DNA of 64,000 bases from Psychrobacter sp. (GTDB taxonomy: Bacteria > Pseudomonadota > Gammaproteobacteria > Pseudomonadales > Moraxellaceae): positions 5,593 through 69,592 of the forward strand of contig NZ_JAKDJE010000004.1 in assembly GCF_030454045.1 (NCBI RefSeq), in the 5' to 3' direction. Under the pieces are notes generated by a model that was not told where the DNA came from, searched no databases, and saw nothing but the letters and a program-made list of their open reading frames with translations. Below, one piece after another: positions 41,656 through 64,000 of this stretch (position 1 is the first letter of the stretch; every line of letters starts with the position of its first letter). The position numbers were made by a program, and so were the translations under genes.

Positions 41656-43959
41656 TCAAAAATCCATCGTTGCTGACAGCAAGAACGTACGCGGCTCACC
41701 TATGGCCAAATCGTTGTAATGTGCCGTTGTCCAATAGGCCTTATTCATCACGTTTTCGACACTACCGCGCAGTGTCAGTGGTTTGTCATTAACAGAAGTC
41801 AAATAGCGCGCACCCACACCATATATAGTGCGACCTGGTAGGGACTGTATATTGTCATTTTCGAGATATTGTTTAGACACCGCATTTGCATTTGCTGTTA
41901 GCGTCAAATTTTCTACGAGAGGTAAATCCCACTCTACGCCGATTTTAGATTGCCACTTTGGCACACCAGCCGCTTGGTTGCCTTCGTTAACCCCATCATT
42001 CATTTTAGTCAACTTAGCATCAATATAGCTGATACCACCCATTAAGCGTACATTTTCAGCAGGCGAGCCAAACACGCCCCACTCCAGGCCTCGATTACGC
42101 TGAGCACCAGCATAAGAAAAAATATTGGTATCGGTATCGGTATAACTGTTGGGTTTTTCGATTTCATAAGCACTTAGAGTATGAGAGAAATTACCAAGAT
42201 CGATTTTTATACCGACTTCTTTTTGTTTGGTCTTATAAGGCGCAAATATCTCGCCAGCATTTTCTGCATCTGTTGGTGCTGTATCTCCTTTACTTAGTCC
42301 TTCTATGTAATTTGCATACAAAGACGTCTGGTCGGTTATCTTTACTGAGAGCGCCACTGACGGCGTTACGGCATTTTCATCATATTTGGCACCTGTTGAT
42401 AACATGCCGCCTGTTTGTTCTGTTTTTAGCTGTTGATAGCGAGCCCCTAAGGTGAGTTGGTATTTATCCTGATCAAACGATAACGTGTCTGCAATGCCAT
42501 AGCTGGTCAATTCGGTGTCTGTCGCAGTTAAAAGTGGCGGATTCAGATCTAAATCAGGTCTGGATCCCCACACAGGGTCGTAGATATTGGTATCAACACT
42601 GACACCACGGAATCTTGCTGCATACAAATTGTATTCCTCTTCATAGCGGGTGGCATTGACTGCTATTTGGTGTCCAATATTGCCCGTTTGGAATTGACCA
42701 TTTAAGCCTACTTCAAGCGATCTTCTTTCGTTGTCATCGCCTACGTATCCAACGGTGGTACTGATATCTCCATCAGTATTAGATATCTGAGCATTATCTG
42801 CACTGAGTCCGTCATAATTCCATTTGGTTACCCCCATGGAGGCATACGTTGTCAATTGGTCATTGATATCAAATTCAGCGCGTCCTATGGCCCCTTTGGT
42901 TTGAGTCTCAAAATAGGCCCAACTGGGATTTAATAATGTATCTGGATCTGGAACACTAGGAATATCAACACCTGATGCTAATGTAACTCCTCGAGTCGGC
43001 CCATCCACATGGTCTGTTGTCGTATAAAGGTCGGCGGATACTCGTGCACGCTCACCGCGCCAGTCCAGTGCAATAGCTGCTGATTGCGCTTGCTTTTCTT
43101 GATCATCAACGGCGCTATCACCCTCTCTATAAGCCCCATTTATACGAACACCAAATTGCTTGTCTTCACCAAAGCGGCGACCTATATCGACATGCGCGCC
43201 CAATTGTGAGTCTGATAGATATCTAGTGGTCAGCTGTGTCAGCGGCTCATCCCCTGCTCGTTTGGTGACTAGGTTGACAGAACCGCCGATAGAGCCGTTG
43301 GGAGACATGCCATTGAGCATTGCTGATGGACCTTTGAGCACCTCAACACGCTCAAACATTTCAGGTGAGCTACGATAGTAAGGTGCCATACCAGTCAATC
43401 CATTGACGGTCACATCATTACTACTCGACGCAAAACCACGAATATAATAACTTTCAAGACTCTCTCCACTGGCACCGCTGGTATAAACAGCGGGATCCGT
43501 TGCAGCAATAACATCGGTAATATCTACCGCTTGTTGGTCAGCGATGAATTTATCGGTGTAACTGATGGCACTAAATGGCGTGTCTAAAAAGTCTTTATTA
43601 CCCAAAAATCCCATATTATTGGTGTATGTCACCTGCCCGCCAGCATAGTTAGAGTTCTCCTCAACGTCAGCTTCAACCGTGATTGCTGGTAGTGTGACCG
43701 TTGGTAGGTCTTGATCCGCTTCTGTGCTCTGGTTTTGTGCAGTAATGGTCATATCAGTGGCTTGTGTACTACTGACTGGCGTACCGTTGGTCTGGGCATA
43801 AGCGGCGGGCATACCCAAAAATACAGTACCAGCAGCTGCCCCACATAAAAGTGCCAGTTTTGCTGAGACAAAATAATTGAGAACAAAAAATGGTTTGTGC
43901 TCTGTGAAAGATTGCTTGACGTTGGGGTGTTGGCTTGAATGTTGTTGAAGTTGAGACAT
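41656..43959 (-). CDS. TonB-dependent siderophore outer-membrane receptor
   Basis: 767 aa with a signal peptide and a TonB-box-like LPAITVEAD. Plug plus 22-strand barrel pattern and a terminal aromatic residue (...SATMDF). Confidence 0.92.
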   Translation of the reverse strand: MSQLQQHSSQHPNVKQSFTEHKPFFVLNYFVSAKLALLCGAAAGTVFLGMPAAYAQTNGTPVSSTQATDMTITAQNQSTEADQDLPTVTLPAITVEADVEENSNYAGGQVTYTNNMGFLGNKDFLDTPFSAISYTDKFIADQQAVDITDVIAATDPAVYTSGASGESLESYYIRGFASSSNDVTVNGLTGMAPYYRSSPEMFERVEVLKGPSAMLNGMSPNGSIGGSVNLVTKRAGDEPLTQLTTRYLSDSQLGAHVDIGRRFGEDKQFGVRINGAYREGDSAVDDQEKQAQSAAIALDWRGERARVSADLYTTTDHVDGPTRGVTLASGVDIPSVPDPDTLLNPSWAYFETQTKGAIGRAEFDINDQLTTYASMGVTKWNYDGLSADNAQISNTDGDISTTVGYVGDDNERRSLEVGLNGQFQTGNIGHQIAVNATRYEEEYNLYAARFRGVSVDTNIYDPVWGSRPDLDLNPPLLTATDTELTSYGIADTLSFDQDKYQLTLGARYQQLKTEQTGGMLSTGAKYDENAVTPSVALSVKITDQTSLYANYIEGLSKGDTAPTDAENAGEIFAPYKTKQKEVGIKIDLGNFSHTLSAYEIEKPNSYTDTDTNIFSYAGAQRNRGLEWGVFGSPAENVRLMGGISYIDAKLTKMNDGVNEGNQAAGVPKWQSKIGVEWDLPLVENLTLTANANAVSKQYLENDNIQSLPGRTIYGVGARYLTSVNDKPLTLRGSVENVMNKAYWTTAHYNDLAIGEPRTFLLSATMDF

Positions 43960-44008
43960 AGCGATATCCTGTCGTTTTGATAAACAAATAAGTATTAAGT
44001 TAATAAAA

Positions 44009-44027
44009 AATAATGATAATAAAAATA
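44009..44027. promoter_or_regulatory. candidate Fur box upstream of the receptor gene
   Basis: aataatgataataaaaata matches the 19-bp Fur consensus at 14/19. It lies 50-70 bp upstream of the start in very AT-rich DNA. Confidence 0.5.
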
Positions 44028-44254: not shown

Positions 44255-45229
44255 TTAAGAGGTCGTCTGATAACCCTTTAACACATCATCCATCATAATG
44301 TTCAACGAGGTCGGACTGGCTGCAGTGATATACCATGCATCGGCATCAACAAACACAACGTGGCCGTTTTTCCATGCTTTGGTTTGACGCAGTAACGGAT
44401 TGCTCACGTCATCAGGGCTGATGGTCGCGCGATGCTCCATAACCGCAGTACGGTCGACGATATAGATGATGTCAGGATCTGCTTGCTGTATAAACTCACT
44501 AGAAATCGGCTGACCGTGCAGGCTGGTATCGTCAAGTGTGCTTGCTGGCTTGACACCTAAGTCATTAAAGATAAAACCATAGCGAGAATGCACGCCAAAA
44601 TTACTAAAAGCCCCATTGTTATGCAGTACCACCAGCGCTTTTTCTGGGCGATTTTTTGTTACTGCTTGTACGTCTTGCACTCTTGCTTCTAGCTGCGCGA
44701 CCTGCTCTTTTGCCAAAGCTTCTTTATCAAAAATCTTACCCAAGGCCAACAGGTGATTTTCAACATTTTCGACATGATGCGCCTGACTGTCATTAAAGCT
44801 CACATCGAAGTGTAGCGTTGGTGCAATCTCGGACAGCTCTTGATAGTTTGCTGCATGTAGCGGAGTCATCAAAATAAGGTCAGGATGTAGCGCATATATG
44901 CGTTCCATATTGGGCTGAACAATAGCCCCTAAATCCTCTATATCAGCATTTTGTTTGTATTGAGCCAAAAAATGCGGCACGTAGTCTTTGACCATGCCTG
45001 CAATCGGTACACCAAGCTGGTCTAGAAAGTCAGCTTCGTTCATATCGAGCACGGCAACCCGCTGCGGACGATGATCGAGCACGGTCGTACCAAGTTCATG
45101 CTCGATGGTGATGGGCGTCTTTAGCGTCTGCGACGCAGCAGACTCATGAGATGCTTTTTCACAGCCTTGTAAGGGGATGGCTGCCATGATGGCAAGCATC
45201 CATACCCAACCTTGTTTTCTTACATTCAT
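44255..45229 (-). CDS. ferric-siderophore ABC transporter substrate-binding lipoprotein
   Basis: Lipobox IPLQGC. Cluster A (FatB/FhuD-like) periplasmic binding fold. Translationally coupled to the ATPase gene. Confidence 0.88.
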   Translation of the reverse strand: MNVRKQGWVWMLAIMAAIPLQGCEKASHESAASQTLKTPITIEHELGTTVLDHRPQRVAVLDMNEADFLDQLGVPIAGMVKDYVPHFLAQYKQNADIEDLGAIVQPNMERIYALHPDLILMTPLHAANYQELSEIAPTLHFDVSFNDSQAHHVENVENHLLALGKIFDKEALAKEQVAQLEARVQDVQAVTKNRPEKALVVLHNNGAFSNFGVHSRYGFIFNDLGVKPASTLDDTSLHGQPISSEFIQQADPDIIYIVDRTAVMEHRATISPDDVSNPLLRQTKAWKNGHVVFVDADAWYITAASPTSLNIMMDDVLKGYQTTS

Positions 45230-46002
45230 ATACTCACTCCTGATAAATTAAAGTAATTGCATAAACAACCACGTTCACTACGAATAATCTCAAACTCAAG
45301 ATCATACAATTCACTCAAGTTACTTTCGGTCACCACCTGCTCAGATGAGCCACTAAAACGCAGTGTCCCATTTTTTAATGCTACGATATGATCTGAATAA
45401 TTGGCCGCAAAGTTGATATCGTGAATCACCAAAATCACCGTCCGACCCTGCTCGTCACATAAACGCCGTAACGCTTGCATGATGTGTACTGCATGCTTCA
45501 TATCCAAATTATTCAAAGGCTCATCCAGCAACAACACATCCGTCTGCTGGGCGATGGTCATTGCCAAAAAAGCCATCTGCCGTTGACCACCGCTCAATTC
45601 ATCTAAATAAGCGTAGCGTAAAGGCGCTAATGCCAAAAACTCAATGGCATCATCAATGATATGGTGATCTTCTGCCGTCAACGCACCGCGGCTATACGGA
45701 AAGCGTCCAAAAGAAATCAGTTCCTCCACCGTTAAGCGCAGATTAAACCCAGGCGACTGACGCAGCGTCGCTACATGATGAGCATATTCAGCAGTTCGGA
45801 TATCACTGATGTCGCGACCCTCGAATAAAACCTCACCGCCACTTGGTTCTAGCAGTCTGGCCATCATCATCAATAGCGTGGATTTCCCAGCCCCATTAGG
45901 GCCAATCAACGACGTCACTCCGCCCTTAGGAAAAGCCAAACTGATCTCAGACAGAACACTTTTGCTGCCATAGCTTTTATACACATTGTTAATCGTAATC
46001 AT
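45226..46002 (-). CDS. ferric-siderophore ABC transporter ATPase
   Basis: GPNGAGKSTLL, LSGGQRQMAFLAMTIA, VLLLDEPLNNLD. 4-nt overlaps on both sides. Confidence 0.92.
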   Translation of the reverse strand: MITINNVYKSYGSKSVLSEISLAFPKGGVTSLIGPNGAGKSTLLMMMARLLEPSGGEVLFEGRDISDIRTAEYAHHVATLRQSPGFNLRLTVEELISFGRFPYSRGALTAEDHHIIDDAIEFLALAPLRYAYLDELSGGQRQMAFLAMTIAQQTDVLLLDEPLNNLDMKHAVHIMQALRRLCDEQGRTVILVIHDINFAANYSDHIVALKNGTLRFSGSSEQVVTESNLSELYDLEFEIIRSERGCLCNYFNLSGVSI

Positions 46003-46949
46003 GTAAACCCTCTAGTACGAACCGTCAGCGCTAGAAAATAGATACCACCCACAAGGTTGACAAGAATACTGACGCTGGTTTTATAATTAAAGACGTGCTC
46101 AACAAAAATCTGAGCCACTAAAAAGATAGCAATCGTAATGGCGCAGGCCATTGGCAACGTGACCTTGTGGCGGTTACTACCTGCAAGCACATACGCGATA
46201 TTAGCAACAAACACCCCCATAAACACCGTAGGGCCAATCAAGCTTGTAGACACTGCCACCAAAATAGCAATGAGTGCCAAATACCGTTTGACATACTTGG
46301 TATGATTCACCCCAAGGGACTGTGCCTGATCACGACCCAACGCCAACACATCTAATATAGGCAAGGTTTTGCGGCCAACCCATAGCGCGGTTGCAACCGC
46401 AAGTACCCCATAAAACAACGTCTCAGGCTGAGATCGATTGAATGAGGTATAGCTCAAACCCTGAAAAACAGAAAACTCGCCAGGGCTGATACGCAATTGA
46501 ATAAACTGAGTCACTGTGCCAATCACCATAGTCAGCACCAAGCCAAATAACAGCAAGGTGTAAACATCGTTCTTACAGCGCGGAAATAGCCAATGGTGCA
46601 GTGCCCACGAATACGCCAGCATCAGCGCGATAGAGACCATAAAGTTGCCGCTCACCCCCAAAAACAGTAGCCCTTGCGTACCCATCAAAAAGAGCAATAG
46701 CACTTGCCATAATAAATAAACCGCTTCGTAACCCATGATCGAAGGCGCTAAAATTCGATTGCCCACAATCGTCTGAAAAATGATGGCTGAAAAAGCCAAG
46801 CAAACACTACCCAAAATAATGGTGGCCAAGCGAATCAAGCGCTTAGGAATCAAATAATCAAAATCTAGACCTGAGCCGATGAATAAAAAGATAAGCGCCA
46901 AGATAATAATCAATACAAACATTATTCGAAACTTTGTGGTTACCGTCAT
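45999..46949 (-). CDS. ferric-siderophore ABC transporter permease (FecCD family)
   Basis: 316 aa and polytopic. Paired with a second FecCD-type permease. Confidence 0.9.
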   Translation of the reverse strand: MTVTTKFRIMFVLIIILALIFLFIGSGLDFDYLIPKRLIRLATIILGSVCLAFSAIIFQTIVGNRILAPSIMGYEAVYLLWQVLLLFLMGTQGLLFLGVSGNFMVSIALMLAYSWALHHWLFPRCKNDVYTLLLFGLVLTMVIGTVTQFIQLRISPGEFSVFQGLSYTSFNRSQPETLFYGVLAVATALWVGRKTLPILDVLALGRDQAQSLGVNHTKYVKRYLALIAILVAVSTSLIGPTVFMGVFVANIAYVLAGSNRHKVTLPMACAITIAIFLVAQIFVEHVFNYKTSVSILVNLVGGIYFLALTVRTRGFT

Positions 46950-47887
46950 CTGACACCCCTCATAATCAGCATGAGGAAGACCACGCCGCCAAGCCCGCCT
47001 GCCGTAAGACCAATGGGCACTTCAAAGGGGTAAATCACCAGCCTGCCAAACACATCACACAGCAGCAGCAAACATGCGCCGCCTAGCGCCACAATGGGCA
47101 GCGTTCGCGACAGGTTTTCTCCATACTTTAACGCCACCAGATTGGGCACGACTAACCCAACAAAAGGTATCGCACCGATGGTGATGACTGATGCGGCGAC
47201 TGTCACTGATACCAATATGAGACCCAAAGCGGCAGTGGTGACATAACTCAGCCCCAAACTGGCCGCCATCTCTTCACCCATACCGACCACCGTAAAGCGA
47301 TGCGCATAAACATAAGCGAGAATAGTGATGGGCAAGATAATATAAATCAGCTCATAATGCCCTTGAACCACCCGCGAAAAATCTCCCAACAACCAGCCTT
47401 GCATGCTTTGCAAGATATTGTGTTGGTACGCATAAAACTCAGCGATGGCGCTGAGTACACTGCCATACATCAAGCCAAGGACAGGAATCAGTACAGAACG
47501 CTTAAGCTTAATACGGCTGATAATATAAATAAAAATCAGACTCGTAGCAAAACAAAAGACCAGTGCAAATATCATCTTACTGCCAGTACTCGCACCAGGA
47601 ATCATCGTCAGTGACACTAAAATTCCAAGCTTGGCGGCATCCATTCCCCCTGATGTTGCAGGCTCAACAAACTTGTTACGCACGATATGCTGCAAAATAA
47701 CGCCACTGACCGACAGCCCTACCCCTGTCAGTATCAACGCGATCAGCCGCGGTATACGACTGGCCATAAGCGTCAGCCATGCGTCCGTAGAAAAAGAAAA
47801 TAATTCCGACCACATTATATGTTTGGTACCAATCATAAGAGAGGCCAGACATAACGTGGCAAATAAAACTGACAACCTTAATATCAT
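46946..47887 (-). CDS. ferric-siderophore ABC transporter permease (FecCD family)
   Basis: 313 aa and polytopic. First gene of the import operon. Confidence 0.9.
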   Translation of the reverse strand: MILRLSVLFATLCLASLMIGTKHIMWSELFSFSTDAWLTLMASRIPRLIALILTGVGLSVSGVILQHIVRNKFVEPATSGGMDAAKLGILVSLTMIPGASTGSKMIFALVFCFATSLIFIYIISRIKLKRSVLIPVLGLMYGSVLSAIAEFYAYQHNILQSMQGWLLGDFSRVVQGHYELIYIILPITILAYVYAHRFTVVGMGEEMAASLGLSYVTTAALGLILVSVTVAASVITIGAIPFVGLVVPNLVALKYGENLSRTLPIVALGGACLLLLCDVFGRLVIYPFEVPIGLTAGGLGGVVFLMLIMRGVR

Positions 47888-48220: not shown

Positions 48221-49558
48221 TTACTGATCTAAGAGCGCATCCTTAGGAATACCGTACGTTTGAAAGGCCGTACAGCTAGGAATGCGATACACCTCGCGCC
48301 CCAATACCTGATTGATAATCACTGCATTTCGATTGGCACCAATACCCAAATCTGGAGAACCGACCCCTTGTTGGAATATTTCTGAATTTTGTATAAAGAT
48401 TCGCCCCAAACCTGTATCACACCTAAGCGCCGTAAAGTCTTCTTGCACTATAAAATCATCCTTACTGTCCGTTGCCAGTACCGACCCTTTTAATTGCGTG
48501 AGCCATTGTGGCCAGTCATGCACATAACCGACAGCAGCAATCACGGCGTCTGTCTCTAGGGTAAAGCGCTGCGCTAGCTGCGTGTGCAAACACTTGATCT
48601 CAAGCGCCCCTGACTGGGCGTTTTCTACAATAGATTCCACTTCGCAGTTTGGATGTAAAGATAAGCCCGTAGGCTTTCCACCGATGGAACGCTCATACAG
48701 CAGATCATATATATCGGCGATGGTTGAGCAGCTGATTCCTTTATATAACAGCCCTTGATCCCCTGCGATGTCACGGCGTTTCTCTCGAGACAGGCTTTGG
48801 AAGTACTGCATATAAGCGGGTGTAAAGCACTCTTGACCAAGCTTTGAGGACTCCATAGGATGAAATCCTGCTGAGCGGCTGATCCAGCGAATGCCCGCTC
48901 CTGCGGCAACTTGAGTAGGTGTCAATGATCCTAGCAGTGCTAGTACACACTCAGCCGCACTTTGTCCTGAGCCAACAACGGTCACTTTTTGGCATTGCGC
49001 TAAGGCTTGTTGTAAGGAGGCAAACTCAGCGGCATGCTTGACCAAAGGATGATTACTATCGGCCAGCCATTTGGGCATATTCGGTCTTGTACCAATACCA
49101 ATGGCCAAGTTGGTGCTGCGATATTGCGTTTTTTCTCCTGATGCTAATGTGCTGTCGATGACAAAGTGGTCTTGCTTGGCATCATAAGTAATATCATCGA
49201 CATGCTCACCAAAATAGCAGCTGGGTAACTGTGTGACGGCCCAGCGGCAATAGTGATTGTATTCAACGCGCGGGATTAAAAAGTGTTCATAGTAATAAAA
49301 CTGGTATAAGCGGTCATGCTGATGTAAATAGTTCAAATAGCTCAGCGTATGGCACGGATCTGCCATCGTGACAAGGTCGGCAAAAAAAGGGACTTGTAGC
49401 GTCGCACCAGACAAAAGCAGTCCCTTGTGCCACTGAAACTCGTGCTTACGCTCTAAAAATCTCGCCTGAACAGTGCGGTGCTCTGAGAGCAATGCCGCCA
49501 AGCCCAGATTAAAGGGTCCAAGACCAATACCTATAATGTCAGCAATTTTTTTATTCAT
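48221..49558 (-). CDS. IucD/PvdA-family flavin-dependent amine N-hydroxylase
   Basis: MNKKIADIIGIGLGPFNLGLAALL...FLERKHEFQWHKG...LQVPFFADLVTMADPCHTLSYLNYL. The ATG at 49558 is preferred over the TTG at 49591. Confidence 0.88.
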   Translation of the reverse strand: MNKKIADIIGIGLGPFNLGLAALLSEHRTVQARFLERKHEFQWHKGLLLSGATLQVPFFADLVTMADPCHTLSYLNYLHQHDRLYQFYYYEHFLIPRVEYNHYCRWAVTQLPSCYFGEHVDDITYDAKQDHFVIDSTLASGEKTQYRSTNLAIGIGTRPNMPKWLADSNHPLVKHAAEFASLQQALAQCQKVTVVGSGQSAAECVLALLGSLTPTQVAAGAGIRWISRSAGFHPMESSKLGQECFTPAYMQYFQSLSREKRRDIAGDQGLLYKGISCSTIADIYDLLYERSIGGKPTGLSLHPNCEVESIVENAQSGALEIKCLHTQLAQRFTLETDAVIAAVGYVHDWPQWLTQLKGSVLATDSKDDFIVQEDFTALRCDTGLGRIFIQNSEIFQQGVGSPDLGIGANRNAVIINQVLGREVYRIPSCTAFQTYGIPKDALLDQ

Positions 49559-49663
49559 TGTGCATAAGCCCTTAATGTCAAACGGTTCCAATATTCAATA
49601 GTGCTGGTTTTTTGATATGTCGTTGCAGCAGCATGTCTCTTTTGCGGCGCTTTGTTGCGTGGC

Positions 49664-52617: not shown

Positions 52618-52636
52618 ACAAATGATAATCATTAGC
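52618..52636. promoter_or_regulatory. Fur box in the divergent Cy-Cy / entE promoter region
   Basis: acaaatgataatcattagc matches GATAATGATAATCATTATC at 15/19. Confidence 0.7.
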
Positions 52637-54406: not shown

Positions 54407-55276
54407 ATGACCATCAAAACACTCTCCGATTATCCCATGCCGCAGCCTGAAAGCTACCCTACCAATAAAGTAAATTGGCAACTCGATGCCAAACGAGCCG
54501 TACTCCTCATTCATGATATGCAGCGTTATTTTGTCAATTTTTATGAGACGGACAGTACACTTATTAATACCTTGATCCATCATTTAACCCGCCTGCGCCA
54601 ATGGGCCTATGACAATGGCGTCCCTGTGGTATATACCGCCCAGCCTTATGAACAGCCAGAGGGAGACCGCGCACTACTCAATGCTATGTGGGGCGCAGGC
54701 TTGCCAGCATCGACAGCCGATCAGCAGTCTATCGTTGATCCGCTCACCCCAGCTGACACAGATACCGTCTTGACCAAGTGGCGCTACAGCGCGTTTGCCC
54801 GCTCAGACTTGCGAGCGCGTATGCAAGGCTGGAACCGTGACCAGCTGATTATAGGCGGGGTTTATGCCCATATTGGCTGTATGGTGACCGCTATAGATGC
54901 GTTTATGAGTGACATTCAATGCTTCTTAGTCGGTGATGCGGTTGCCGACTTCTCAGAAGCGGAGCATCGCATGGCACTACAGTATGTGTCTTCGCGTTGT
55001 GGTCAAGTGCTCAACACCGAAGCGATCGTCGGGGCAAAAACAAATACAATCACCAAACAGTGGCTTCATACTCGAGTTGAGCAGCTCATTGAGGAAGAGG
55101 AGGAGATAGATCCTGAGGAGAATTTAATTATATACGGGTTAGACTCGCTTAGGATTATGCAGCTTGCCGCCGAGTTTAAAGGATATGGCATTGATATTGG
55201 TTTTGAAGAAATTGCACGCAATCCAACCTTATCTAACTGGTGGGATTTGATACAACAACAGCAAAAGTCAGCCTAA
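54407..55276 (+). CDS. entB: isochorismatase fused to an aryl carrier protein
   Basis: Isochorismatase core AVLLIHDMQRYFV. C-terminal ArCP with phosphopantetheine site GLDSLRIMQL. Confidence 0.92.
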   Translation: MTIKTLSDYPMPQPESYPTNKVNWQLDAKRAVLLIHDMQRYFVNFYETDSTLINTLIHHLTRLRQWAYDNGVPVVYTAQPYEQPEGDRALLNAMWGAGLPASTADQQSIVDPLTPADTDTVLTKWRYSAFARSDLRARMQGWNRDQLIIGGVYAHIGCMVTAIDAFMSDIQCFLVGDAVADFSEAEHRMALQYVSSRCGQVLNTEAIVGAKTNTITKQWLHTRVEQLIEEEEEIDPEENLIIYGLDSLRIMQLAAEFKGYGIDIGFEEIARNPTLSNWWDLIQQQQKSA

Positions 55277-55299: not shown

Positions 55300-57219
55300 A
55301 TGAAAAACGTGAGTGATGACCATCTAGAGGGTATTTATACTCCCAACCAAGACACTGCATTTGCAAATGTCGTATTGCATGACTATCTTGATACGATTAA
55401 GACCAATGTATTGATCACACCGCCAGATAAAACCGCGCTTATTTTTGCTGACCAATCGATCAGCTACCATGAGGTTGGTCATCATGTTGCAGTAATGATG
55501 GCAACCTTTAGGCAGCAAGGCATTCGTGCTGGGTCTGTGGTAGCCATTTGCTTGCACAAAAGCCCCGAACATATCTATACCACGATTGCATGTGCCTTAA
55601 TGGGTATTGTTTGGCTGCCCATTGATATACAAGCACCGCGCTCAAGAATTGACTATTTACTGACCAACAGTCGCGCCGACTTTGCCGTCAGTCAGGGGCC
55701 ACTATCGCAGCTGTCTGGCATTCAAATAACGACCATTGATATTGATACCGCGCGCGGTCATAACGATCCGATAGATCTGCGTGACTGGTCTTGCGTCTAT
55801 GATCTGAGCCGCCGCCCTGCGTACTATCTCTATACTTCTGGTAGCACAGGCAAGCCAAAATGTGTGGTCTTAAACAATCAGGCAACCGCCAACGTCTTGC
55901 AACAAACCATCGCACATTGGGACGTCACTCATAACGACGTCTTTATGGCTATCACGCCTTTTCATCATGACATGTCTGTGTTCGATATTTTTACGCCCCT
56001 ATCAGTTGCAGCGACGCTGGTCATCCCAACTACCGAGCAGCAAAAAGATGCGGGTGCATGGGCAGCATTGATCGCTAAACATCACATCACGCTGTGGTGT
56101 AGCGTGCCTGCCATTGTCGATATGTTGCTGACGGTGAGTGGTCATGACCAAATCAAGACCCTGCGCTTAATTGCCCAAGGTGGTGATTATATCAAGCCAT
56201 CCATAATTACTCTGCTCAAGCAGACCCTGCCTCAAGCGCGGCAGTTTTCTTTAGGCGGGCCGACAGAAACCACCATTTGGAGTATTTGGCATGAGGTCCT
56301 TGACGACGATCAACACATCATTCCATACGGGAAGGCCTTAGCACACAACCAGTATCATATCCTAAATGAGCAGCATGCGCCTTGTGAGACTAGCACCATC
56401 GGAACCATGTATATGTCTGGAATCAATTTATCAAATGGCTACTTATTGGATGGAGAGACACATCACAATGACTTCATGCCCATTAAAACGACAAATGGCG
56501 ATGTGGTCATGGCCTTTAAGATGAGTGATTTGGGTTATTATCGAGATGATGGCGCGATCATATTTTCAGGACGCAAGGAAGGGTATCTTAAGGTCAAAGG
56601 CGTGCGCATTGCGGCATCTGAAGTTGAAAATGCCTTATCTACCTACCCTGCCATTCATCATGCCGTGGTGATCAGCTGCACACACCCTACCACCGATATC
56701 AATGAGCTGGTGGCGCTTTACACCATCAAAAATACGCATGACACAAGCAGTACCAACCGCTTGCCCAAGCAGCAGCTAAGCGCTTTTGATCTAAGAACCT
56801 ATCTAAAAGATCAGCTACCAAGCTCGCACATTCCCTCTAAGTTTTTATTGATAGACGACATACCGCTAACAGCGAACAGCAAAGTCGATCGTAACAAACT
56901 ACTAAGCCTAGCGCAGGAACGATTATCTATAGCGCCGACGCCTGTCATAGCGGGCACGCCCACTGATTCTAGTCTGTCAGCAGAAGTGATTGATACCGTT
57001 TTGACCTTGTTTAAAAACTATCTACCCAAGCACCAAATACAAACGCTGGAGGGCGATACGCAACTGTTTGCTTTAAGCATAAAACCCAAACAACTGATGA
57101 CCATTGCCACGCAGCTATCACAGCAACTGAATGTCTCGCTTGATTTTTATTCACTGGTAGTCTGTAAAACTCTGGGTGAGGTGATGATAAAAGCACAGCT
57201 TGCTTTAGACCGTCAATAA
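55300..57219 (+). CDS. free-standing NRPS adenylation-PCP didomain protein (substrate not assignable)
   Basis: A-domain cores ISYHEV, YLYTSGSTGKPKCVV, GRKEGYLKVKGVRIAASEVE, PLTANSKVDRNKL. C-terminal carrier-like domain ...LEGDTQLFALSIKPKQLMTIATQL. Confidence 0.85.
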   Translation: MKNVSDDHLEGIYTPNQDTAFANVVLHDYLDTIKTNVLITPPDKTALIFADQSISYHEVGHHVAVMMATFRQQGIRAGSVVAICLHKSPEHIYTTIACALMGIVWLPIDIQAPRSRIDYLLTNSRADFAVSQGPLSQLSGIQITTIDIDTARGHNDPIDLRDWSCVYDLSRRPAYYLYTSGSTGKPKCVVLNNQATANVLQQTIAHWDVTHNDVFMAITPFHHDMSVFDIFTPLSVAATLVIPTTEQQKDAGAWAALIAKHHITLWCSVPAIVDMLLTVSGHDQIKTLRLIAQGGDYIKPSIITLLKQTLPQARQFSLGGPTETTIWSIWHEVLDDDQHIIPYGKALAHNQYHILNEQHAPCETSTIGTMYMSGINLSNGYLLDGETHHNDFMPIKTTNGDVVMAFKMSDLGYYRDDGAIIFSGRKEGYLKVKGVRIAASEVENALSTYPAIHHAVVISCTHPTTDINELVALYTIKNTHDTSSTNRLPKQQLSAFDLRTYLKDQLPSSHIPSKFLLIDDIPLTANSKVDRNKLLSLAQERLSIAPTPVIAGTPTDSSLSAEVIDTVLTLFKNYLPKHQIQTLEGDTQLFALSIKPKQLMTIATQLSQQLNVSLDFYSLVVCKTLGEVMIKAQLALDRQ

Positions 57220-57243: not shown

Positions 57244-57275
57244 AAAAAAGGTTTACCGCGGTAAACCCTTTTTTT
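57244..57275. terminator. bidirectional terminator (A-PCP / entA)
   Basis: aaaaaaggtttac-cgcg-gtaaacccttttttt. Confidence 0.8.
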
Positions 57276-57322: not shown

Positions 57323-58084
57323 CTAGCACCCTAACGTCGCACCACCATCCACCACCAGATCCTGCATGGTGATATGTGACGCCTGATCGCTTATAAAAAA
57401 CATGATCACGTTCGTGATGTCTTTAACCTGCGCTATTTTTTGTAGCGGTATGCCAAGTTTATACTGTTTAAGATTGCCCGTAATGGTGGTTTGCTCCCCA
57501 TTCTCATCTCCCCATAGCTGCGTTTGCATCGCCGTTTCGGTAGATCCTGGTGACACCACATTGGCTCTGACACCATATTCAGCCAGCTCTAATGCCACTG
57601 TTTTTGTGAAGTAAGTCAGTGCCGCTTTTGATGCCCCGTAGGCGGACATATTGATACGCGGCATAGTAGCGGCATTGGATGACACCACAACGATACTGCC
57701 ACTGCGTTTTTCTTTAAAATAAGGCGTCAACTTTTGGCAGAAGTGAAAGCAAGAAAACACATTTACTGCAAAGGTATCCAGCCAATCTTTAGAGGACATA
57801 TCATTGTGCTGTGCCAAATGCAGGACACCTGCAATATGAATAAAATAGTCAGGGGGACTGACCGTTAATAGTGTCTCACATAAGTGCATAATCTGCTGTT
57901 CATCTCGAATGTCGCAAATGTGTACCTGCTGTTGTAACACTGCGGGCAGTTTGTCTTTGGCCTTATCGATACCGATAACCTCAACATCCTCATCTAACAG
58001 GCGCTGCATCACATCTGCGCCAATACCTTGATTGACGCCCACCAGCCATGCGGTTTTTTTTATCACAGTGTGATTTGTCATCAT
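57323..58084 (-). CDS. entA: 2,3-dihydro-2,3-dihydroxybenzoate dehydrogenase (SDR)
   Basis: GVNQGIG Rossmann motif and catalytic SAYGASKAAL. Lies immediately downstream of entC. RBS aagga. Confidence 0.85.
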   Translation of the reverse strand: MMTNHTVIKKTAWLVGVNQGIGADVMQRLLDEDVEVIGIDKAKDKLPAVLQQQVHICDIRDEQQIMHLCETLLTVSPPDYFIHIAGVLHLAQHNDMSSKDWLDTFAVNVFSCFHFCQKLTPYFKEKRSGSIVVVSSNAATMPRINMSAYGASKAALTYFTKTVALELAEYGVRANVVSPGSTETAMQTQLWGDENGEQTTITGNLKQYKLGIPLQKIAQVKDITNVIMFFISDQASHITMQDLVVDGGATLGC

Positions 58085-58101: not shown

Positions 58102-59301
58102 TTACGCGCTGGTGTCACAGAGGCGTAGTATGGTTTTCATTTTGTCTTCTGTCTCACGCCATTCCGACTCTGGATCAGACCCTTCAACGATACCAGCACC
58201 CGCGTACAACCGTAATTTTTTATCATTCAATAGCCCGCAACGAATTGTGACGACCCACTCGCCATTGCCTTCTGCATCCATCCAGCCCACCAAGCCTGTG
58301 TAATAGCCGCGCTCATACCCTTCATGCTGTAATATAAAATCTTTGGCCAATTGCGTTGGTGTACCACACACTGCGGGGGTTGGGTGTAGCTTTAATGCCA
58401 AGCTCAAAGCGTTGGGTGCGGCTTTTCTTAGTGTGCCTTGTAATGTTGAGGACAAATGAAACATGGTCGAGGTTTCAAGCACTTCTGGAAACTCAGACAT
58501 ACTTAGCGTTACACAGTCAGCCACTAGATTGCGCGATATGTTTTCGACAACGATTTTATGCTCGTGCTGATCCTTGATCGACTCCTGCAAGGCTTGTTGG
58601 TTCTTTTGATTGTGCTCTAAGCTATCACGCTTGGGTCTAGAACCCGCTAGAGGATTGCTCTTAACGAGTCGATCATTTTTAGACAATAGCAGCTCTGGAC
58701 TTGCCCCTAGTAGGTACTGCTGATTGTCTACGGGTATCACAAAGTTATAAGCGGTTGGGTTCTTATCCAGCAAGGCGTCTAAATAAAAGGCTAGGTTCTG
58801 CGACTTATCAAAACTAACATCAACCGCTTGTGACAGTACTATTTTTGTTAGCTCTGTGCTTTTGAAAGTCTCTAACGCATAATTGACGGTTTTTTTGAAC
58901 TTATCTTGATTCACCAGTAATGTCTTGTTCTTGATGTGCGTCTCATTTTTTATCAGATCAGTTTTTTTGGTTTTTTGGTCCGACTTATCGTAGTCACTAT
59001 AAAAATTTAATACCGCGTCATTTCTGATATCAAAAGGAATAGCAGCAATTAAGATTGGATTTTTATCGCCATTATTTTTCATCTCTTTAAAACGATCAGC
59101 GATACGCTGATTAAAATGTGCCGTATCTGCTGCAGGTGTCATTAGCGTCTGCGAAAAATTCTTGCCAATCAGGTGATATTCTTTTGTGGAAAAGCAGGCA
59201 AAATGTGCTTCATGATTTGTCGGTGTTTCTAAATAGTGTTGTAAAGACATAATTGATATCTCACTGTGGTTATTAATGCATCGATCATTATTGTTACTCA
59301 C
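58102..59301 (-). CDS. entC: isochorismate synthase
   Basis: Chorismate-binding C-terminal core GYERGYYTGLVGWMDAEGNGEWVVTIRCG. The track ORF starts at GTG 59301. ATG 59250 (MSLQHYLE...) is a plausible alternative start. Confidence 0.9.
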   Translation of the reverse strand: MSNNNDRCINNHSEISIMSLQHYLETPTNHEAHFACFSTKEYHLIGKNFSQTLMTPAADTAHFNQRIADRFKEMKNNGDKNPILIAAIPFDIRNDAVLNFYSDYDKSDQKTKKTDLIKNETHIKNKTLLVNQDKFKKTVNYALETFKSTELTKIVLSQAVDVSFDKSQNLAFYLDALLDKNPTAYNFVIPVDNQQYLLGASPELLLSKNDRLVKSNPLAGSRPKRDSLEHNQKNQQALQESIKDQHEHKIVVENISRNLVADCVTLSMSEFPEVLETSTMFHLSSTLQGTLRKAAPNALSLALKLHPTPAVCGTPTQLAKDFILQHEGYERGYYTGLVGWMDAEGNGEWVVTIRCGLLNDKKLRLYAGAGIVEGSDPESEWRETEDKMKTILRLCDTSA

Positions 59302-59324
59302 GTTTTATAAATAAAAATAATGGT

Positions 59325-59343
59325 GATATTGATAATCATTATC
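59325..59343. promoter_or_regulatory. near-consensus Fur box upstream of entC-entA
   Basis: gatattgataatcattatc matches GATAATGATAATCATTATC at 18/19. On the minus strand it overlaps a ttgata-17 nt-cattat promoter. Confidence 0.85.
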
Positions 59344-59498: not shown

Positions 59499-60320
59499 CT
59501 ATGATATAGAGCAGATGGTAATGATATGCTGCTCTGTTATCACCCACTGCACCTGCATCACCGCTTGGGCCAGTCCGTTTCCTTGTGCCTTTTGCGTGCT
59601 ATCGATGACGGTAAAAGTCATAACATCACCAGACACGCCCATATACTCAAACGCTAAAAAACTCAGTAATACATTATATTTGGCATATATCGCCTTAATG
59701 AGGCTTTCTTTAGCAGAAAATATCATTAAATAGATATAGTGATTCGGATGTGTGCCACACGAATATTCTACCAGTGCCATAGCTTCTTGATCATTTAAAA
59801 AAGCGTAGTGCTGAGGCTCATCACGCTCAAAGCAAACATTGTTTATTTTGGCCTCAATATCCACCCCTATAGCACTGCAATCCTGCATAGATGGTTGCCG
59901 ATAAGCGCAGCAGATCGCCGTACACGATGTTTTGTCACCTGTGTGGCTAATGCTCCCTGTTATGCCATTTGGCCATAGCGGCTCGCCATGCTTCCCTTTT
60001 AATACGGTAAAATGAGTCAAGCCAAACGACTGTAAGGCAAGCTTTGCCGCCAAGCGCCCCGTCAAAAAATCCAGCTTTCGCTTTGTGGATACGCGGGTTA
60101 ATGCCTTTGGTAAGTCAATATCAAAACAATCATACGCCGCCTCTATCGCAAAATTGGCGGTCAATACAATCACAGACAGCTGATGTATCTGGTGATGCGC
60201 GAGCGCCACAGTGATATACGTCAGCCGAATATGCTGGCGTATATCACTCAGCGCCCGCGCATCTTGTGCCAACAAAGCATTGATGTCCGATACCTCACGC
60301 TTTGCGGTGTGGTAACGCAT
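59499..60320 (-). CDS. entD: 4'-phosphopantetheinyl transferase (EntD/Sfp type)
   Basis: GVDIE and FSAKESLIKA motifs. N-terminal KRKLDFLTGRLAAKLAL. Overlaps the thioesterase gene end by 26 nt. Confidence 0.85.
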   Translation of the reverse strand: MRYHTAKREVSDINALLAQDARALSDIRQHIRLTYITVALAHHQIHQLSVIVLTANFAIEAAYDCFDIDLPKALTRVSTKRKLDFLTGRLAAKLALQSFGLTHFTVLKGKHGEPLWPNGITGSISHTGDKTSCTAICCAYRQPSMQDCSAIGVDIEAKINNVCFERDEPQHYAFLNDQEAMALVEYSCGTHPNHYIYLMIFSAKESLIKAIYAKYNVLLSFLAFEYMGVSGDVMTFTVIDSTQKAQGNGLAQAVMQVQWVITEQHIITICSIS

Positions 60321-61071
60321 ACAGCAAACAGTCCTCTATTTTTTTTAGCATTTGCGTAAGCGATGACGGATTTAAAAAATAAAAATGATCGCCTGCCAGT
60401 GCATGACACCCCAAAAAAACCTCAGAATGTGCTTGCCACGCTTGCATCATCGCCTCGTCTTCGATATCTGGATCATCAATACCGTAAAATGCAATTAAGG
60501 GCGCGGTTAAAGGCGAAGGTGTCTTGGTCATCTGCTGACAGATAAGCTGGTCACTGATAGAAAAATCATTACGCATAATGGTCAAAAAATAGTTCAGCGC
60601 TGCTGTATTTTGTAAAATCTCAGGCGGAAAATTATTGTAATGCACCAGTTTTTCGATAATCTCATCATCCGTTAAGTGCTGCCTGTCGCAAATATGTTGC
60701 AAATATTGCGGCTCTGGGCGACTGCTGACCACTACCAGTACCAACAGTTCAAGCGCATCCTGTGCGCGTAGATGATCGATCACCGGCCATAGCAAAGCGC
60801 CACCGACACTGTGCCCAAATAAAATATAAGGGACGTCTTTATAGGACATTATCGTCTGGGCAATGTCTGCTGCCAATACATTTGGATCATTAACCAATGG
60901 CTGCCCCGATCTGCTGCCATGGCCTGCATACTCTATCGGTATGATTTTTATATGCGTATGTTCACAAGTCTCGGCCACCACTGGCTTCCATGCGCTATAG
61001 ATCGCAGAGCTGCTGCCCGCTGGTGGCAGACAAAACAGGTGATAACGGTTATTCATTGACATCATATTCAC
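60295..61071 (-). CDS. type II (editing) thioesterase
   Basis: About 258 aa alpha/beta hydrolase with GHSVGG nucleophile motif. NRPS cluster context. Confidence 0.85.
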   Translation of the reverse strand: MNMMSMNNRYHLFCLPPAGSSSAIYSAWKPVVAETCEHTHIKIIPIEYAGHGSRSGQPLVNDPNVLAADIAQTIMSYKDVPYILFGHSVGGALLWPVIDHLRAQDALELLVLVVVSSRPEPQYLQHICDRQHLTDDEIIEKLVHYNNFPPEILQNTAALNYFLTIMRNDFSISDQLICQQMTKTPSPLTAPLIAFYGIDDPDIEDEAMMQAWQAHSEVFLGCHALAGDHFYFLNPSSLTQMLKKIEDCLLYALPHRKA

Positions 61072-61187: not shown

Positions 61188-62771
61188 CTATAAAGCGATA
61201 GATTGTGTCGGCTGCCAGATCGTCGAATCACGATGCGTCACAAAAACCACCGTGGCAGACAAGGCGCGAATGCTATCGACAATGGCCTTTTCGATCTCTT
61301 CATCCAAAGCCGATGTCGCTTCATCTAATACCAAAATAGGCGCTTTTTTGATTAATGCGCGTGCCAGTGCGACGCGTTGACGCTCTCCTCCTGATAAAGC
61401 GGATCCTTGCTGACCCACGGACTGATGTATTCCTTCAGGGGCACGATCAATCACAGACTCCAGCGTCATTTTTCGGGCAATGCTGTCAACCTCAACGTCT
61501 GATGCTTGCGGATTGCCAATACGGATATTTTCAGCCAGAGTGCCTGTAAATATGATAGGGTCTTGAGGGACATAGGCAATATGCGCTGCTAGATCTTCAT
61601 ATGGCATGTCACTGATCTTTACGCCGCCGAGCAAAATATGACCGTGCTCAGGATCGTCAAAGCGCATCAATAACTCAAGCAAGGTGCTCTTACCGCTGCC
61701 GCTCACACCCGTAACCCACACTCGATTGCCTTCTGGAATATCAATATTGATGTCTTTTAAGACGCATGCATGACTCACCTGACACACACTGAGCTGATAG
61801 TCAGCAGGAGCGGACTTGATAAGGGCAGGCTCAGGCAGCGTTGGTGTATTGATCGCCTGCTGATAATTCTGTAGAGAGGCCTTTAAATCATTAATACCCA
61901 AACCTGCCACAGCCAGTTCACCAAGTGGTGCGGCTGCACGACCGACCAAAATCAGCACCGCCAAGACCATTGCCGCACTACTGCCACCTGTGATAATGAG
62001 GTAAGCGGCCATACCGGCTAAGGGTAACACCGTAGCTAGGTTTGAGACAAACACGGCCATGGCGGCAGCGTTGTTGGTGCTTTTTAAGGTATCTTCTTGA
62101 ATACGCCAGCGCTGCTCAATACGGGCGATGGCGCGCTTGGGGCCTGCCGCTGTTCTTAATAACTCAATATGATCTACCAATTCAAGCGTCGCTTCTGCGG
62201 TGCTGGCTTCTGCCTTATGCCGATTATTATCTGCCAGGCTTAGCGCCCGCTGTGATAAAAACTGGGCGATCAGAGACAATATCAATAGCGCCGCCGCCAC
62301 TAATGCCAGCGCTAACCCTGCAACCATGCCGATCCCAAAGACCAAAAATAAGGGAATGCAGGGCGCATGCAAGAACTTTTGCAGCTGATGCGCGGGGATA
62401 CTCATAAATCCTGGTATGCCTTGACCGGCAATGGTCGCAACCTGAGCACGATGCTCATTGGTAAACCAAGACAGTTTGGTGCGTGATAAAGCCTGACCCA
62501 GCGCCGCGTACAAGTCACCCGCCAGCCGCACACCAGTTAAGTAGCCTGAACGATTGACCAATACGGTAGCAAGAATGGCGGCCGCAGCTGTGATTAAGAC
62601 CCATTTGGGCGACCATTGATTGACAATACCCAGTGCCAGCGCGGTATAAGCAATGGCTTCTAGGACAGCGACCGCTATCCAGCCTACCCCTACTGTCATC
62701 AATCGCCTGCGCGCAATTGCTGGTAATGACGATGTCGGCTTTTTGTGTGGTGTATCTACGGTAATACTCAT
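61188..62771 (-). CDS. fused TMD-NBD ABC transporter subunit (siderophore-cluster associated, CydC/BarB-like)
   Basis: N-terminal 6-TM region. GVSGSGKSTLL, LSGGERQRVALARAL, ILVLDEATSALD. 4-nt overlap with the upstream partner. Confidence 0.85.
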   Translation of the reverse strand: MSITVDTPHKKPTSSLPAIARRRLMTVGVGWIAVAVLEAIAYTALALGIVNQWSPKWVLITAAAAILATVLVNRSGYLTGVRLAGDLYAALGQALSRTKLSWFTNEHRAQVATIAGQGIPGFMSIPAHQLQKFLHAPCIPLFLVFGIGMVAGLALALVAAALLILSLIAQFLSQRALSLADNNRHKAEASTAEATLELVDHIELLRTAAGPKRAIARIEQRWRIQEDTLKSTNNAAAMAVFVSNLATVLPLAGMAAYLIITGGSSAAMVLAVLILVGRAAAPLGELAVAGLGINDLKASLQNYQQAINTPTLPEPALIKSAPADYQLSVCQVSHACVLKDINIDIPEGNRVWVTGVSGSGKSTLLELLMRFDDPEHGHILLGGVKISDMPYEDLAAHIAYVPQDPIIFTGTLAENIRIGNPQASDVEVDSIARKMTLESVIDRAPEGIHQSVGQQGSALSGGERQRVALARALIKKAPILVLDEATSALDEEIEKAIVDSIRALSATVVFVTHRDSTIWQPTQSIAL

Positions 62772-64000
62772 GACAAACGCTCCAGATCAGTATTGGATGT
62801 CAGCTCTAGTCGAGCATTTGTTTGCTCCGACAATGCCTTGTCATGAGTCACCATAATGATGGTCTTTTCTTGGTTATGTGCTTCATCTAGCAAGGCTTTT
62901 AGCACTTTTGTAACCCTCGCGTGATCCAAAGCGCTGGTCGGTTCATCAAGCAGAATGATAGGTGCTGATGATAAGAATACGCTGGCAAGACCGATACGCT
63001 GACGTTCGCCGCCTGAGAGCGACTGAGCATCAGCGCTCAGCTCCACGCTCAGCTGAGCGCACTCTAGTGCCGCATTAAGCGCTTGATCTGTGGCATTCGG
63101 GGCAAATAATAGTAGGTTGTCTTTGACGGTTGCAGGCAATACATCACCCCCTTGCGGTACGAACAATACAGCATCATGTTTGGTGTTTTCATCCAGCTTG
63201 GCTATATTCGTGTTTGCCAGCTGCACCTGTCCGGTGTGCAATGGCTCAAAACCTGCCAGCATACGCAGCAGCGTCGTTTTACCCACGCCGCTGGGCCCTG
63301 TGATGGCAGTGACGGCATTGGTCTTAAACGTATGCGTCAACCCGTCAATTATTTGGACATTATCGATCACCATCTCAGCGTCTGTAATTTTCAGCGTGAA
63401 CGGCGCTGATAGCTGCGTTATTTGACCCTTGGGTAATATTGGTTGTTGTAATAATGCGATCAGCCGACTTGCCGCCGCTTTACCAGCGCCAACATAATCT
63501 AGCCCATGCCCCAAACGTAACGCGGGACTGACAACGGCGAGACTAAAAAACAAGATCGTGGCCATCACTGGGGTGTCGTAGTCATAAGCGATCAGATAAG
63601 CAACGGCAAATGTCGCTACCGCTTGTAGCAGTGCCACGGCCATACCTGCGAGCGTCGCCACTTTACTTACCCACATGACCAAGCTGTCTGTAAAGCGCTT
63701 GGTGGCATCATGATAAGCAGCCAGCGCCCCCGACTGTTGGCCATAGATGCGATTGACGCGGATACCACGTGCATAGTCATCTACAGCAGAGATGACCTCG
63801 CCCACCACCTGCATGCGCGCAGCACCATCACGCGCTGTCACGCGCGGCACAATGACTAGATAATATAAAGAAGCGATCACACCTGGCAGTAAGACCCACA
63901 GCGCCACAGGGCCTGCCACACTCACCAATATAACAATAGATGCCAGCGGTAAAATCGCAAAGCTTGTCACCTCTGAGGGTAGATGCGCCACCATATGATG
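62768..64000 (-). CDS. fused TMD-NBD ABC transporter subunit (CydD/BarA-like), 5' end outside the window
   Basis: GPSGVGKTTLL, LSGGERQRIGLASVF, IILLDEPTSALD. The open frame reaches the window edge, so the Met at 63994 is probably internal. Confidence 0.8.
   Translation of the reverse strand, partial: HHMVAHLPSEVTSFAILPLASIVILVSVAGPVALWVLLPGVIASLYYLVIVPRVTARDGAARMQVVGEVISAVDDYARGIRVNRIYGQQSGALAAYHDATKRFTDSLVMWVSKVATLAGMAVALLQAVATFAVAYLIAYDYDTPVMATILFFSLAVVSPALRLGHGLDYVGAGKAAASRLIALLQQPILPKGQITQLSAPFTLKITDAEMVIDNVQIIDGLTHTFKTNAVTAITGPSGVGKTTLLRMLAGFEPLHTGQVQLANTNIAKLDENTKHDAVLFVPQGGDVLPATVKDNLLLFAPNATDQALNAALECAQLSVELSADAQSLSGGERQRIGLASVFLSSAPIILLDEPTSALDHARVTKVLKALLDEAHNQEKTIIMVTHDKALSEQTNARLELTSNTDLERLS

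Follow-up and report, generated by a model that had tools for sequence, protein, structure and literature searches.

A probable acinetobactin-type siderophore system encoded in a Psychrobacter chromosome

We analyzed a stretch of 64,000 nucleotides from the Psychrobacter sp. contig NZ_JAKDJE010000004.1 (the window) and focused on a siderophore locus at positions 41656 to 64000. This locus very probably represents a complete acinetobactin-type (bas/bau/bar) siderophore system under Fur control in the Psychrobacter chromosome, and the predicted product is preacinetobactin/acinetobactin. Based on a listing of open reading frames (ORFs) together with Pfam and NCBIfam scans of the window proteins, we identified 16 genes in the locus (Table 1), and inspection of the gaps between these genes revealed no further ORF of note. 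An earlier reading of the same DNA, made without database searches (the sequence-only reading), had counted 17 contiguous genes. All of the genes that it named were confirmed together with their coordinates and strands, and it was right in assigning the locus to the acinetobactin/anguibactin-like family, in which 2,3-dihydroxybenzoate (DHB), a heterocycle, and an N-hydroxyamine are joined; orthologues of bas/bau/bar genes are present throughout. It had also described the parts list as non-canonical, with no peptidyl carrier protein-condensation (PCP-C) protein, decarboxylase, or ferric-siderophore reductase in the 22 kb visible. That is literally true of the window; however, in identical contigs, the genes for a histidine decarboxylase (basG) and a PCP-C protein (basB) lie shortly past position 64000, after the rest of barA.

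The cluster looked incomplete because the window ends inside barA, which encodes a protein of 536 aa in identical contigs. To follow the locus beyond this point, we used an exact-sequence look-up of the BarB-like protein, which returned 21 contigs, of which six were fetched. All six were 99.95-100% identical to window positions 51188 to 64000, and one (L005) matched at 100% over 12,813 bp. Each of them carries the rest of barA, then a gene for a 379-aa pyridoxal phosphate (PLP)-dependent decarboxylase, and then a divergently oriented gene whose product of 703-727 aa contains PP-binding and Condensation domains. On the window scale, as extrapolated from these identical contigs, basG and basB are both located no more than 4.5 kb past the window end, and basB starts 2.2 kb past it. 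The decarboxylase passes the histidine decarboxylase equivalog NF002748 (607 bits, cutoff 305) and has the SGHK PLP motif. The BasB-like protein is 54% identical overall to A. baumannii BasB, and shares the motif sequences FFDYGGHSLLATRIIG and HHMVIDEWSLNTIMADL with that protein; the GGHSL and HHMVIDEWS motifs are identical in the two. The non-canonical parts list was therefore an effect of the window edge, and arguments from "missing parts" at such an edge are not to be trusted. In total, the cluster spans roughly 27 kb, of which about 22 kb lie in the window. All 18 cluster ORFs (the 16 in the window plus basG and basB) are intact, and the catalytic motifs that were checked are all kept. Family scans and the flanking contigs gave no additional tailoring gene (methyltransferase, acyltransferase, or additional nonribosomal peptide synthetase [NRPS] module) in or adjoining the cluster. 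In the longest contig, basB is followed by an IS3-family transposase gene and an AhpD-like gene. The called transposase product has 19 stops in one frame, which fits programmed frameshifting or a joined gene call, and five of the six assemblies end within ~1 kb of this element.

The sequence-only reading held that the amine, the heterocycle precursor, and the release chemistry could not be deduced. All three can be deduced, from the matches to TIGR04439 and NF002748, from the threonine code described below, and from the condensation domain of BasB, respectively. For the amine, the BasC-like hydroxylase passes the equivalog TIGR04439, "putative histamine N-monooxygenase" (811.5 bits, cutoff 700). 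Because a histamine N-monooxygenase equivalog and a histidine decarboxylase are both present, the amine is predicted to be N-hydroxyhistamine. In the ORF as listed, the family match starts only at residue 18, and the true start codon of the basC-like gene is therefore probably the ATG at 49558.

For the aryl cap, the supply of DHB is complete, with an isochorismate synthase (EntC; TIGR00543, 305 bits, cutoff 225), an isochorismatase-aryl carrier protein (ArCP) fusion that has the carrier serine (GLDSL), and a DHB dehydrogenase. The gene for the latter, entA, lies inside the locus, as the sequence-only reading had stated, and its product passes the equivalog NF006074 (333 bits, cutoff 312). Gene callers place the start of entC ~16 codons further in. 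The DHB ligase passes NF008192, the (2,3-dihydroxybenzoyl)adenylate synthase equivalog (870 bits, cutoff 783), and matches BasE (PDB 3O82) with 840 bits. The pocket of BasE includes N242, F243, S247, V336, V344, and Y346 (PMC12005286), and a change of the pocket serine to cysteine shifts its preference to salicylate. The ligase in the window keeps six of six of these residues at a constant offset of +6. Judged from these enzymes, the predicted aryl cap is DHB.

The sequence-only reading placed an adenylation-PCP (A-PCP) gene in the slot where a histidine decarboxylase gene was expected. An adenylation gene does follow the entB homologue; however, this gene is a relocated basA, and the protein gave no Pfam match for a PP-binding domain. 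Over 95% of its length, the A protein is 53-54% identical to 615-aa Acinetobacter proteins annotated by NCBI as acinetobactin NRPS subunit BasA. A database search returned Psychrobacter proteins at 89-100% identity, followed by proteins from metagenomes and Marinomonas at 58-61% and, after these, by hundreds from Acinetobacter. By sequence, we therefore assign the gene as basA, adjoining basF rather than basB. The ten residues of the specificity code were taken from a MAFFT alignment in which the core motifs served as anchors. The window protein has the code DMFCAGLIWK, which is identical at 10 of 10 positions to that of the threonine domains in the fused enzymes of Aeromonas salmonicida and Pseudomonas (pseudomonine-type). 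One position separates it from A. baumannii and A. pittii BasA (DMFSAGLIWK; C instead of S at code position 278) and one from V. cholerae VibF (DMFVAGLIWK), while five separate it from the AngR-type enzymes found in Vibrio and Psychromonas (DLYNMSMIWK). Threonine is the substrate of VibF and of the pseudomonine enzyme, while AngR activates cysteine. BasA loads L-threonine (PMC12005286). Because its code matches those of the threonine-activating enzymes (BasA, VibF, and pseudomonine) and not that of AngR, the A protein is predicted to use threonine and thus to give an oxazoline.

The label A-PCP is a slight overstatement. The C-terminal 70 aa of the A protein are carrier-like, with K at the position of the phosphopantetheine serine, where A. 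baumannii BasA has R; the working PCP is that of BasB. In the tandem cyclization (Cy-Cy) protein, both DxxxxD motifs are intact and invariant in 12 homologues. This protein is 90% identical to proteins of Psychrobacter sp. FME5/6/13, 49-57% to those of Marinomonas, 52-53% to those of most Acinetobacter species (45-47% for A. gerneri and A. portensis), 46-50% to the fused Cy-Cy-A enzymes of Aeromonas and Pseudomonas, and 43-44% to the AngN type of Vibrio. We note that the Cy-Cy C terminus (49664-49920) and the A-protein C terminus (57010-57219) are both ~70-aa carrier-like domains in which R or K replaces the phosphopantetheine serine (GLRPQHLK and SIKPKQLM, respectively). The Cy-Cy tail is orthologous to the one at the C terminus of the fused Cy-Cy-A proteins of Aeromonas and Pseudomonas (33 of 69 residues identical), and the A-protein tail is a far more divergent copy (11-16 identical). 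These tails may be docking elements.

Gene content, families, motifs, the specificity code, Fur boxes, and flanking genes can be read directly from the DNA; from these, and from one-to-one orthology with the A. baumannii pathway (scheme as in PMC12005286), we infer expression of the locus and the following route to the product. EntC/BasJ, the isochorismatase half of BasF, and EntA would generate DHB, which BasE would adenylate and load onto the aryl carrier domain of BasF. The stand-alone BasA would activate L-threonine and load it onto the PCP of BasB, and the tandem Cy domains of BasD would condense DHB with threonine and cyclodehydrate the product to a DHB-methyloxazoline thioester. BasG and BasC would convert histidine to N-hydroxyhistamine by decarboxylation and N-hydroxylation, and the condensation domain of BasB would release the chain onto this amine to give preacinetobactin, which would isomerize to acinetobactin. 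BasI would prime the carrier domains, and BasH would edit misloaded carriers. Finally, BarAB would export the siderophore, and BauA together with BauBCDE would import the ferric complex.

Next, we compared the whole cluster with related loci using tblastn with the 18 proteins. Each protein has one orthologue in Acinetobacter at 33-75% identity (Table 1), and bauF is the sole Acinetobacter component without a counterpart here. The flank supplies the decarboxylase and the PCP-C protein that the sequence-only reading had proposed to look for, while identity to the characterized cluster is moderate instead of high, the level that this reading would have expected of a locus for a known siderophore. 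The components correspond one to one to BasA-J, BauA-E, and BarAB of the A. baumannii acinetobactin cluster. The two clusters also have in common the split NRPS architecture (stand-alone A, Cy-Cy, PCP-C, and ICL-ArCP), the degenerate carrier-like tails on BasA and BasD, identical PCP and condensation motifs in BasB, and the BasE pocket. They differ in entA, which lies inside the window cluster, in the absence of bauF, and in the C instead of S at code position 278. They also differ in gene order. In Acinetobacter, the order is basJ-I-H-barB-A-basG-F-E / basD-C / bauA-B-E-C-D / basB / basA / bauF; basG follows basF, and basB, basA, and bauF lie beyond bauD. In the window cluster, bauABECD-basC-basD are co-directional, basA follows basF, and basG-barAB-basHIJ-entA form a run in the opposite arrangement. 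The A. baumannii gene order given in the sequence-only reading was only approximate when set against the Acinetobacter loci compared here. Overall, the differences from A. baumannii are real but small.

Outside Psychrobacter, the closest named relatives are the uncharacterized clusters of Marinomonas transparens and M. rhizomae. Identity to M. transparens (57-84%) exceeds that to Acinetobacter for every protein compared; identities to M. rhizomae are lower (52-79%). Both Marinomonas species share the local order basG-barA-barB / basA-basF-basE / basD-basC-bauDCEBA, while in M. transparens, unlike in the window, entC, entA, and the phosphopantetheinyl transferase gene lie on the other side, after bauA. 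The acinetobactin cluster of A. salmonicida, a reported producer species of acinetobactin (PMC10253897), and the pseudomonine (pms) clusters of Pseudomonas fluorescens and P. entomophila have the same DMFCAGLIWK code and homologous Cy-Cy, PCP-C, hydroxylase, and decarboxylase proteins at 45-69% identity. However, Cy-Cy and A are fused in one protein of ~1450 aa in these clusters, whereas they are encoded by separate genes in the window. Moreover, pseudomonine uses salicylate, whereas entA is part of the window locus and the ligase encoded there is of the DHB type, with Ser at the position that discriminates DHB from salicylate. The Vibrio anguibactin system (AngN, AngR, AngM, AngU, AngH, and FatABCD) resembles the locus in its stand-alone Cy-Cy protein, N-hydroxyhistamine branch, PCP-C release, and homologous transporters at 45-64% identity. 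It differs in the cysteine-activating Cy-A-PCP protein AngR, which leads to a thiazoline; the A protein of the window is 27-28% identical to AngR and has no Cy domain.

On the uptake side, the receptor matches TIGR01783 with 411 bits and A. baumannii BauA (PDB 6H7F/6H7V) with 798 bits and 54% identity; the next PDB match is FemA with 537 bits. Its identity is 50-53% to Acinetobacter BauA and 63% to the Marinomonas receptor. The binding protein matches BauB (PDB 6MFL) with 492 bits and the anguibactin-binding protein FatB with 90 bits. Twelve BauA residues contact preacinetobactin (PMC6300358). We considered these contact residues as a test of ligand identity and dropped them as non-discriminating: a second BauA allele, in A. 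baumannii L087 and A. calcoaceticus, keeps 5 of the 12. We note that HMMER and MAFFT alignments of the window receptor disagree at Y312 and Y314. The alternative allele is found in A. baumannii CP059729 (L087, 18295-20619) and A. calcoaceticus (L010, 14297-16528). It is only 57-60% identical to the crystallized type, which is the one present in A. pittii ATCC 19004 (L016, 14293-16497), and differs from it at seven of the 12 contact residues. The receptor gene varies much more than the genes for biosynthesis. Similarly, between the window and Psychrobacter sp. FME6, BauA is 74% identical and everything else 81-97%. Concerning bauF, which encodes a SIP-type reductase, tblastn with A. baumannii BauF identified no homologue in the window or in the fetched Psychrobacter and Marinomonas loci, and no FAD_binding_9/SIP domain was present among the window ORFs scanned. 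These searches bear out the absence of a ferric-siderophore reductase noted in the sequence-only reading. For the biosynthesis, bauF is an accessory and not a defining feature.

To assess regulation by Fur, we scored sites by their mismatches to the 19-bp Fur consensus. The whole window contains 10 matches with at most five mismatches compared to a mean of 2.25 in shuffled sequence, and Fur boxes are present in three to four of the cluster promoter regions (Table 1). A scan for sigma-70 promoters gave 31 matches in the window compared to 38.7 in shuffled sequence, i.e., no excess. Downstream of bauA, a hairpin resembling an intrinsic terminator marks the left end of the cluster, and a second terminator-like hairpin follows basA.

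Table 1. Features of the siderophore locus on the window scale. Positions past 64000 are extrapolated from identical contigs. Identities are ranges for the orthologues of A. baumannii, A. pittii, A. calcoaceticus, and A. haemolyticus.
Feature	Position	Strand	Basis or details	Identity to Acinetobacter
Intrinsic-terminator-like hairpin downstream of bauA	41576..41612	-	15-bp stem, 7 GC pairs, then T run	
bauA-like, TonB-dependent outer-membrane receptor for ferric siderophore	41656..43959	-	TIGR01783 and BauA match	BauA 50-53%
Weak, marginal Fur-box-like site upstream of bauA	44009..44027		5 mismatches	
bauB-like, periplasmic siderophore-binding lipoprotein	44255..45229	-	BauB match; lipobox LQGC in translation	BauB 69-70%
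bauE-like, ABC importer ATPase	45226..46002	-	FecE/FhuC-type matches	BauE 75%
bauC-like, FecCD permease	45999..46949	-	Family scans and Acinetobacter identity	BauC 71-73%
bauD-like, FecCD permease	46946..47887	-	Family scans and Acinetobacter identity	BauD 72-74%
basC-like, histamine N-monooxygenase	48221..49591	-	TIGR04439; Pfam Lys_Orn_oxgnase	BasC 70-73%
basD-like, tandem cyclization protein (Cy1-Cy2)	49664..52570	-	968 aa; serine-less carrier-like tail	BasD 52-53%
Overlapping Fur boxes, divergent basD/basE promoter region	52618..52642		3 and 4 mismatches; overlap promoter-like hexamers	
basE-like, 2,3-dihydroxybenzoate-AMP ligase	52736..54361	+	NF008192; PDB 3O82	BasE 68%
basF-like, isochorismatase-aryl carrier protein fusion	54407..55276	+	Isochorismatase and PP-binding; GLDSL serine	BasF 69-71%
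basA orthologue, stand-alone threonine-type adenylation enzyme (predicted)	55300..57219	+	639 aa; BasA identity; code	BasA 54%
Terminator-like hairpin after basA	57250..57267	+		
entA, 2,3-dihydro-2,3-dihydroxybenzoate dehydrogenase	57323..58084	-	NF006074	
basJ/entC-like, isochorismate synthase	58102..59301	-	TIGR00543	BasJ 52-54%
Strong Fur box upstream of entC-entA operon	59325..59343		GATATTGATAATCATTATC, 1 mismatch	
basI-like, EntD/Sfp-type phosphopantetheinyl transferase	59499..60320	-	4PPT_N and ACPS	BasI 33-37%
basH-like, type II thioesterase	60295..61071	-	Thioesterase domain; GHSVG motif	BasH 49-51%
barB-like, fused ABC exporter	61188..62771	-	CydC/CydD-type half-transporter matches	BarB 62-65%
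barA-like, fused ABC exporter, incomplete at window end	62768..64000	-	536 aa at full length	BarA 60-61%
Remainder of barA	to ~64378	-	Identical contigs	
basG, histidine decarboxylase	~64540-65679	-	Identical contigs; NF002748	BasG 73-74%
Fur boxes between basG and basB	~65896-65926		2 mismatches (in L005)	
basB, PCP-C protein	~66225-68408	+	PP-binding and Condensation	BasB 53-54%
IS3-family transposase	~68799-70018 (L001 2754-3973)		HTH_Tnp_1, HTH_21, rve	

Several observations weigh against an acinetobactin-type assignment. Identity to the characterized A. baumannii enzymes is only moderate (BasD 53%, BasA 54%, and BasB 54%); the window receptor keeps 5 of the 12 residues by which crystallized BauA contacts preacinetobactin; bauF is absent from the cluster; basG and basB were seen in other assemblies of the same species, although one of these is 100% identical over 12.8 kb; and Psychrobacter siderophores have barely been studied in the literature. 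Some of these observations would be explained if the product were a new congener of the acinetobactin/anguibactin family, with a serine-derived oxazoline, other stereochemistry, or a modified amine, as the sequence-only reading had suggested. The moderate identities, the C at code position 278, the 7 of 12 BauA ligand-contact residues that differ, and the lack of a characterized product from Psychrobacter are in agreement with such a congener. However, the same code is found in the enzyme of A. salmonicida, the reported producer mentioned above, and in the Pseudomonas pseudomonine enzymes; the histamine-specific hydroxylase and the histidine decarboxylase both score above their equivalog cutoffs; and the cluster has no additional tailoring enzyme. 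Because BauA alleles within the A. baumannii group diverge equally in the ligand pocket, receptor divergence is uninformative on the ligand. We consider a new congener improbable. In a related and similarly improbable scenario, the form of the cluster in Psychrobacter and Marinomonas (basA by basF, entA inside, no bauF, and a receptor pocket with 7 of 12 residues different) would signify a product other than acinetobactin, e.g., a close analogue, or iron release without a SIP protein. If so, the many food and cheese Psychrobacter that have been scored as "enterobactin-type" would make a distinct histamine-containing siderophore.

Still less probable is that the locus was acquired horizontally as an island and, being silent or decaying, yields no product. 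The IS3-family transposase gene directly after basB, where most assemblies break, the lack of left-flank conservation in Psychrobacter sp. FME6, and the missing bauF would fit an island of this kind. On the other hand, 18 of 18 ORFs are intact with the checked catalytic motifs, and good Fur boxes are present in the promoter regions. Moreover, the cluster proteins are 74-97% identical in Psychrobacter sp. FME6 and FME13, and A-protein sequences that group at 90% identity or more carry the names Psychrobacter faecalis and P. alimentarius. BasE- and BasG-like sequences that cluster at a level of at least 90% are named from P. celer, FME5/6, PAMC 21119, and others. The closer Marinomonas proteins, the IS element at the right edge, and the non-conserved left flank hint at a possible horizontal exchange. 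Base composition gave no sign of a recent acquisition, as the G+C content of the cluster (42-52%) is not clearly unlike that of the rest of the window (39-50%).

An anguibactin-type system, with cysteine activation and a thiazoline ring, shares the histamine branch and a stand-alone tandem-Cy protein resembling AngN (43-44%) with the locus, but is effectively refuted by the low identity of the A protein to AngR-type A domains (27-28%), the code (DMFCAGLIWK versus DLYNMSMIWK), the lack of a Cy-A-PCP AngR architecture, and the far higher score of the binding protein against BauB than against FatB. A pseudomonine-type system is ruled out by entA, the DHB-type ligase with its discriminating Ser, and the separate Cy-Cy and A genes, and fimsbactin and vibriobactin types are ruled out by the histamine-specific amine branch.

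The remaining window is ordinary chromosome, with purD and genes for an NAD-glutamate dehydrogenase, sbcCD, sulfate assimilation and transport, bfd, two bacterioferritins, a DEAD-box helicase, a UvrA paralogue, and mtfA. A second iron-regulated unit comprises a Fur box at 26767-26791 (three mismatches) upstream of a gene for a 63-aa bfd-like [2Fe-2S] ferredoxin (26927-27118), which is followed by two tandem bacterioferritin genes (27492-28532); an ArsR-type regulator is encoded at 26235-26564. The 855-aa UvrA-like protein encoded at 36052-38619 is probably a UvrA paralogue. UvrA models matched it only from approximately model position 262, leaving the N-terminal quarter of canonical UvrA unmatched, and it scored 921 against the PRK00349 cutoff of 1147, i.e., below it, and above the TIGR00630 cutoff. 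At 38982-39063, a stretch of 41 bp is perfectly duplicated in tandem (2.0 copies, 100% match), and this repeat overlaps position 39024, where the mtfA-like gene is annotated to start. We also considered this element as a palindrome; an inverted-repeat search found nothing, and the BLAST self-match is the 41-bp tandem duplication. Between mtfA and the cluster, at 39929-41309, are two ORFs without a Pfam or NCBIfam match, of which one encodes a probable lipoprotein (internal lipobox LTATGC) and the other a protein of 162 aa with a signal-peptide-like N terminus. Only 129 bp of this left flank are conserved in Psychrobacter sp. FME6.

In a literature search, we found no description of an acinetobactin-type cluster or product for Psychrobacter beyond a VFDB match to BauA in one genome announcement (PMC7365799). 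Another paper mentions that strain P11F6 has a fimsbactin-like cluster (PMC12053065), and a survey of cheese, which called the literature scarce, reported "enterobactin-type" pathways in 58 of 141 Psychrobacter genomes (PMC12718721). With the acinetobactin-type assignment favored here, histamine-containing clusters of this type would extend beyond Acinetobacter, Aeromonas, and Vibrio to several Psychrobacter species (among them, by the names of the sequences, P. faecalis, P. alimentarius, and P. celer) and Marinomonas. The significance is modest in that this is a conventional acinetobactin-type system in another genus. Nevertheless, our findings suggest that many of the Psychrobacter catecholate pathways classed as "enterobactin-type" in that survey are really acinetobactin-type, and such a reassignment would bear on the prediction of siderophore cross-feeding and piracy in food microbiomes.

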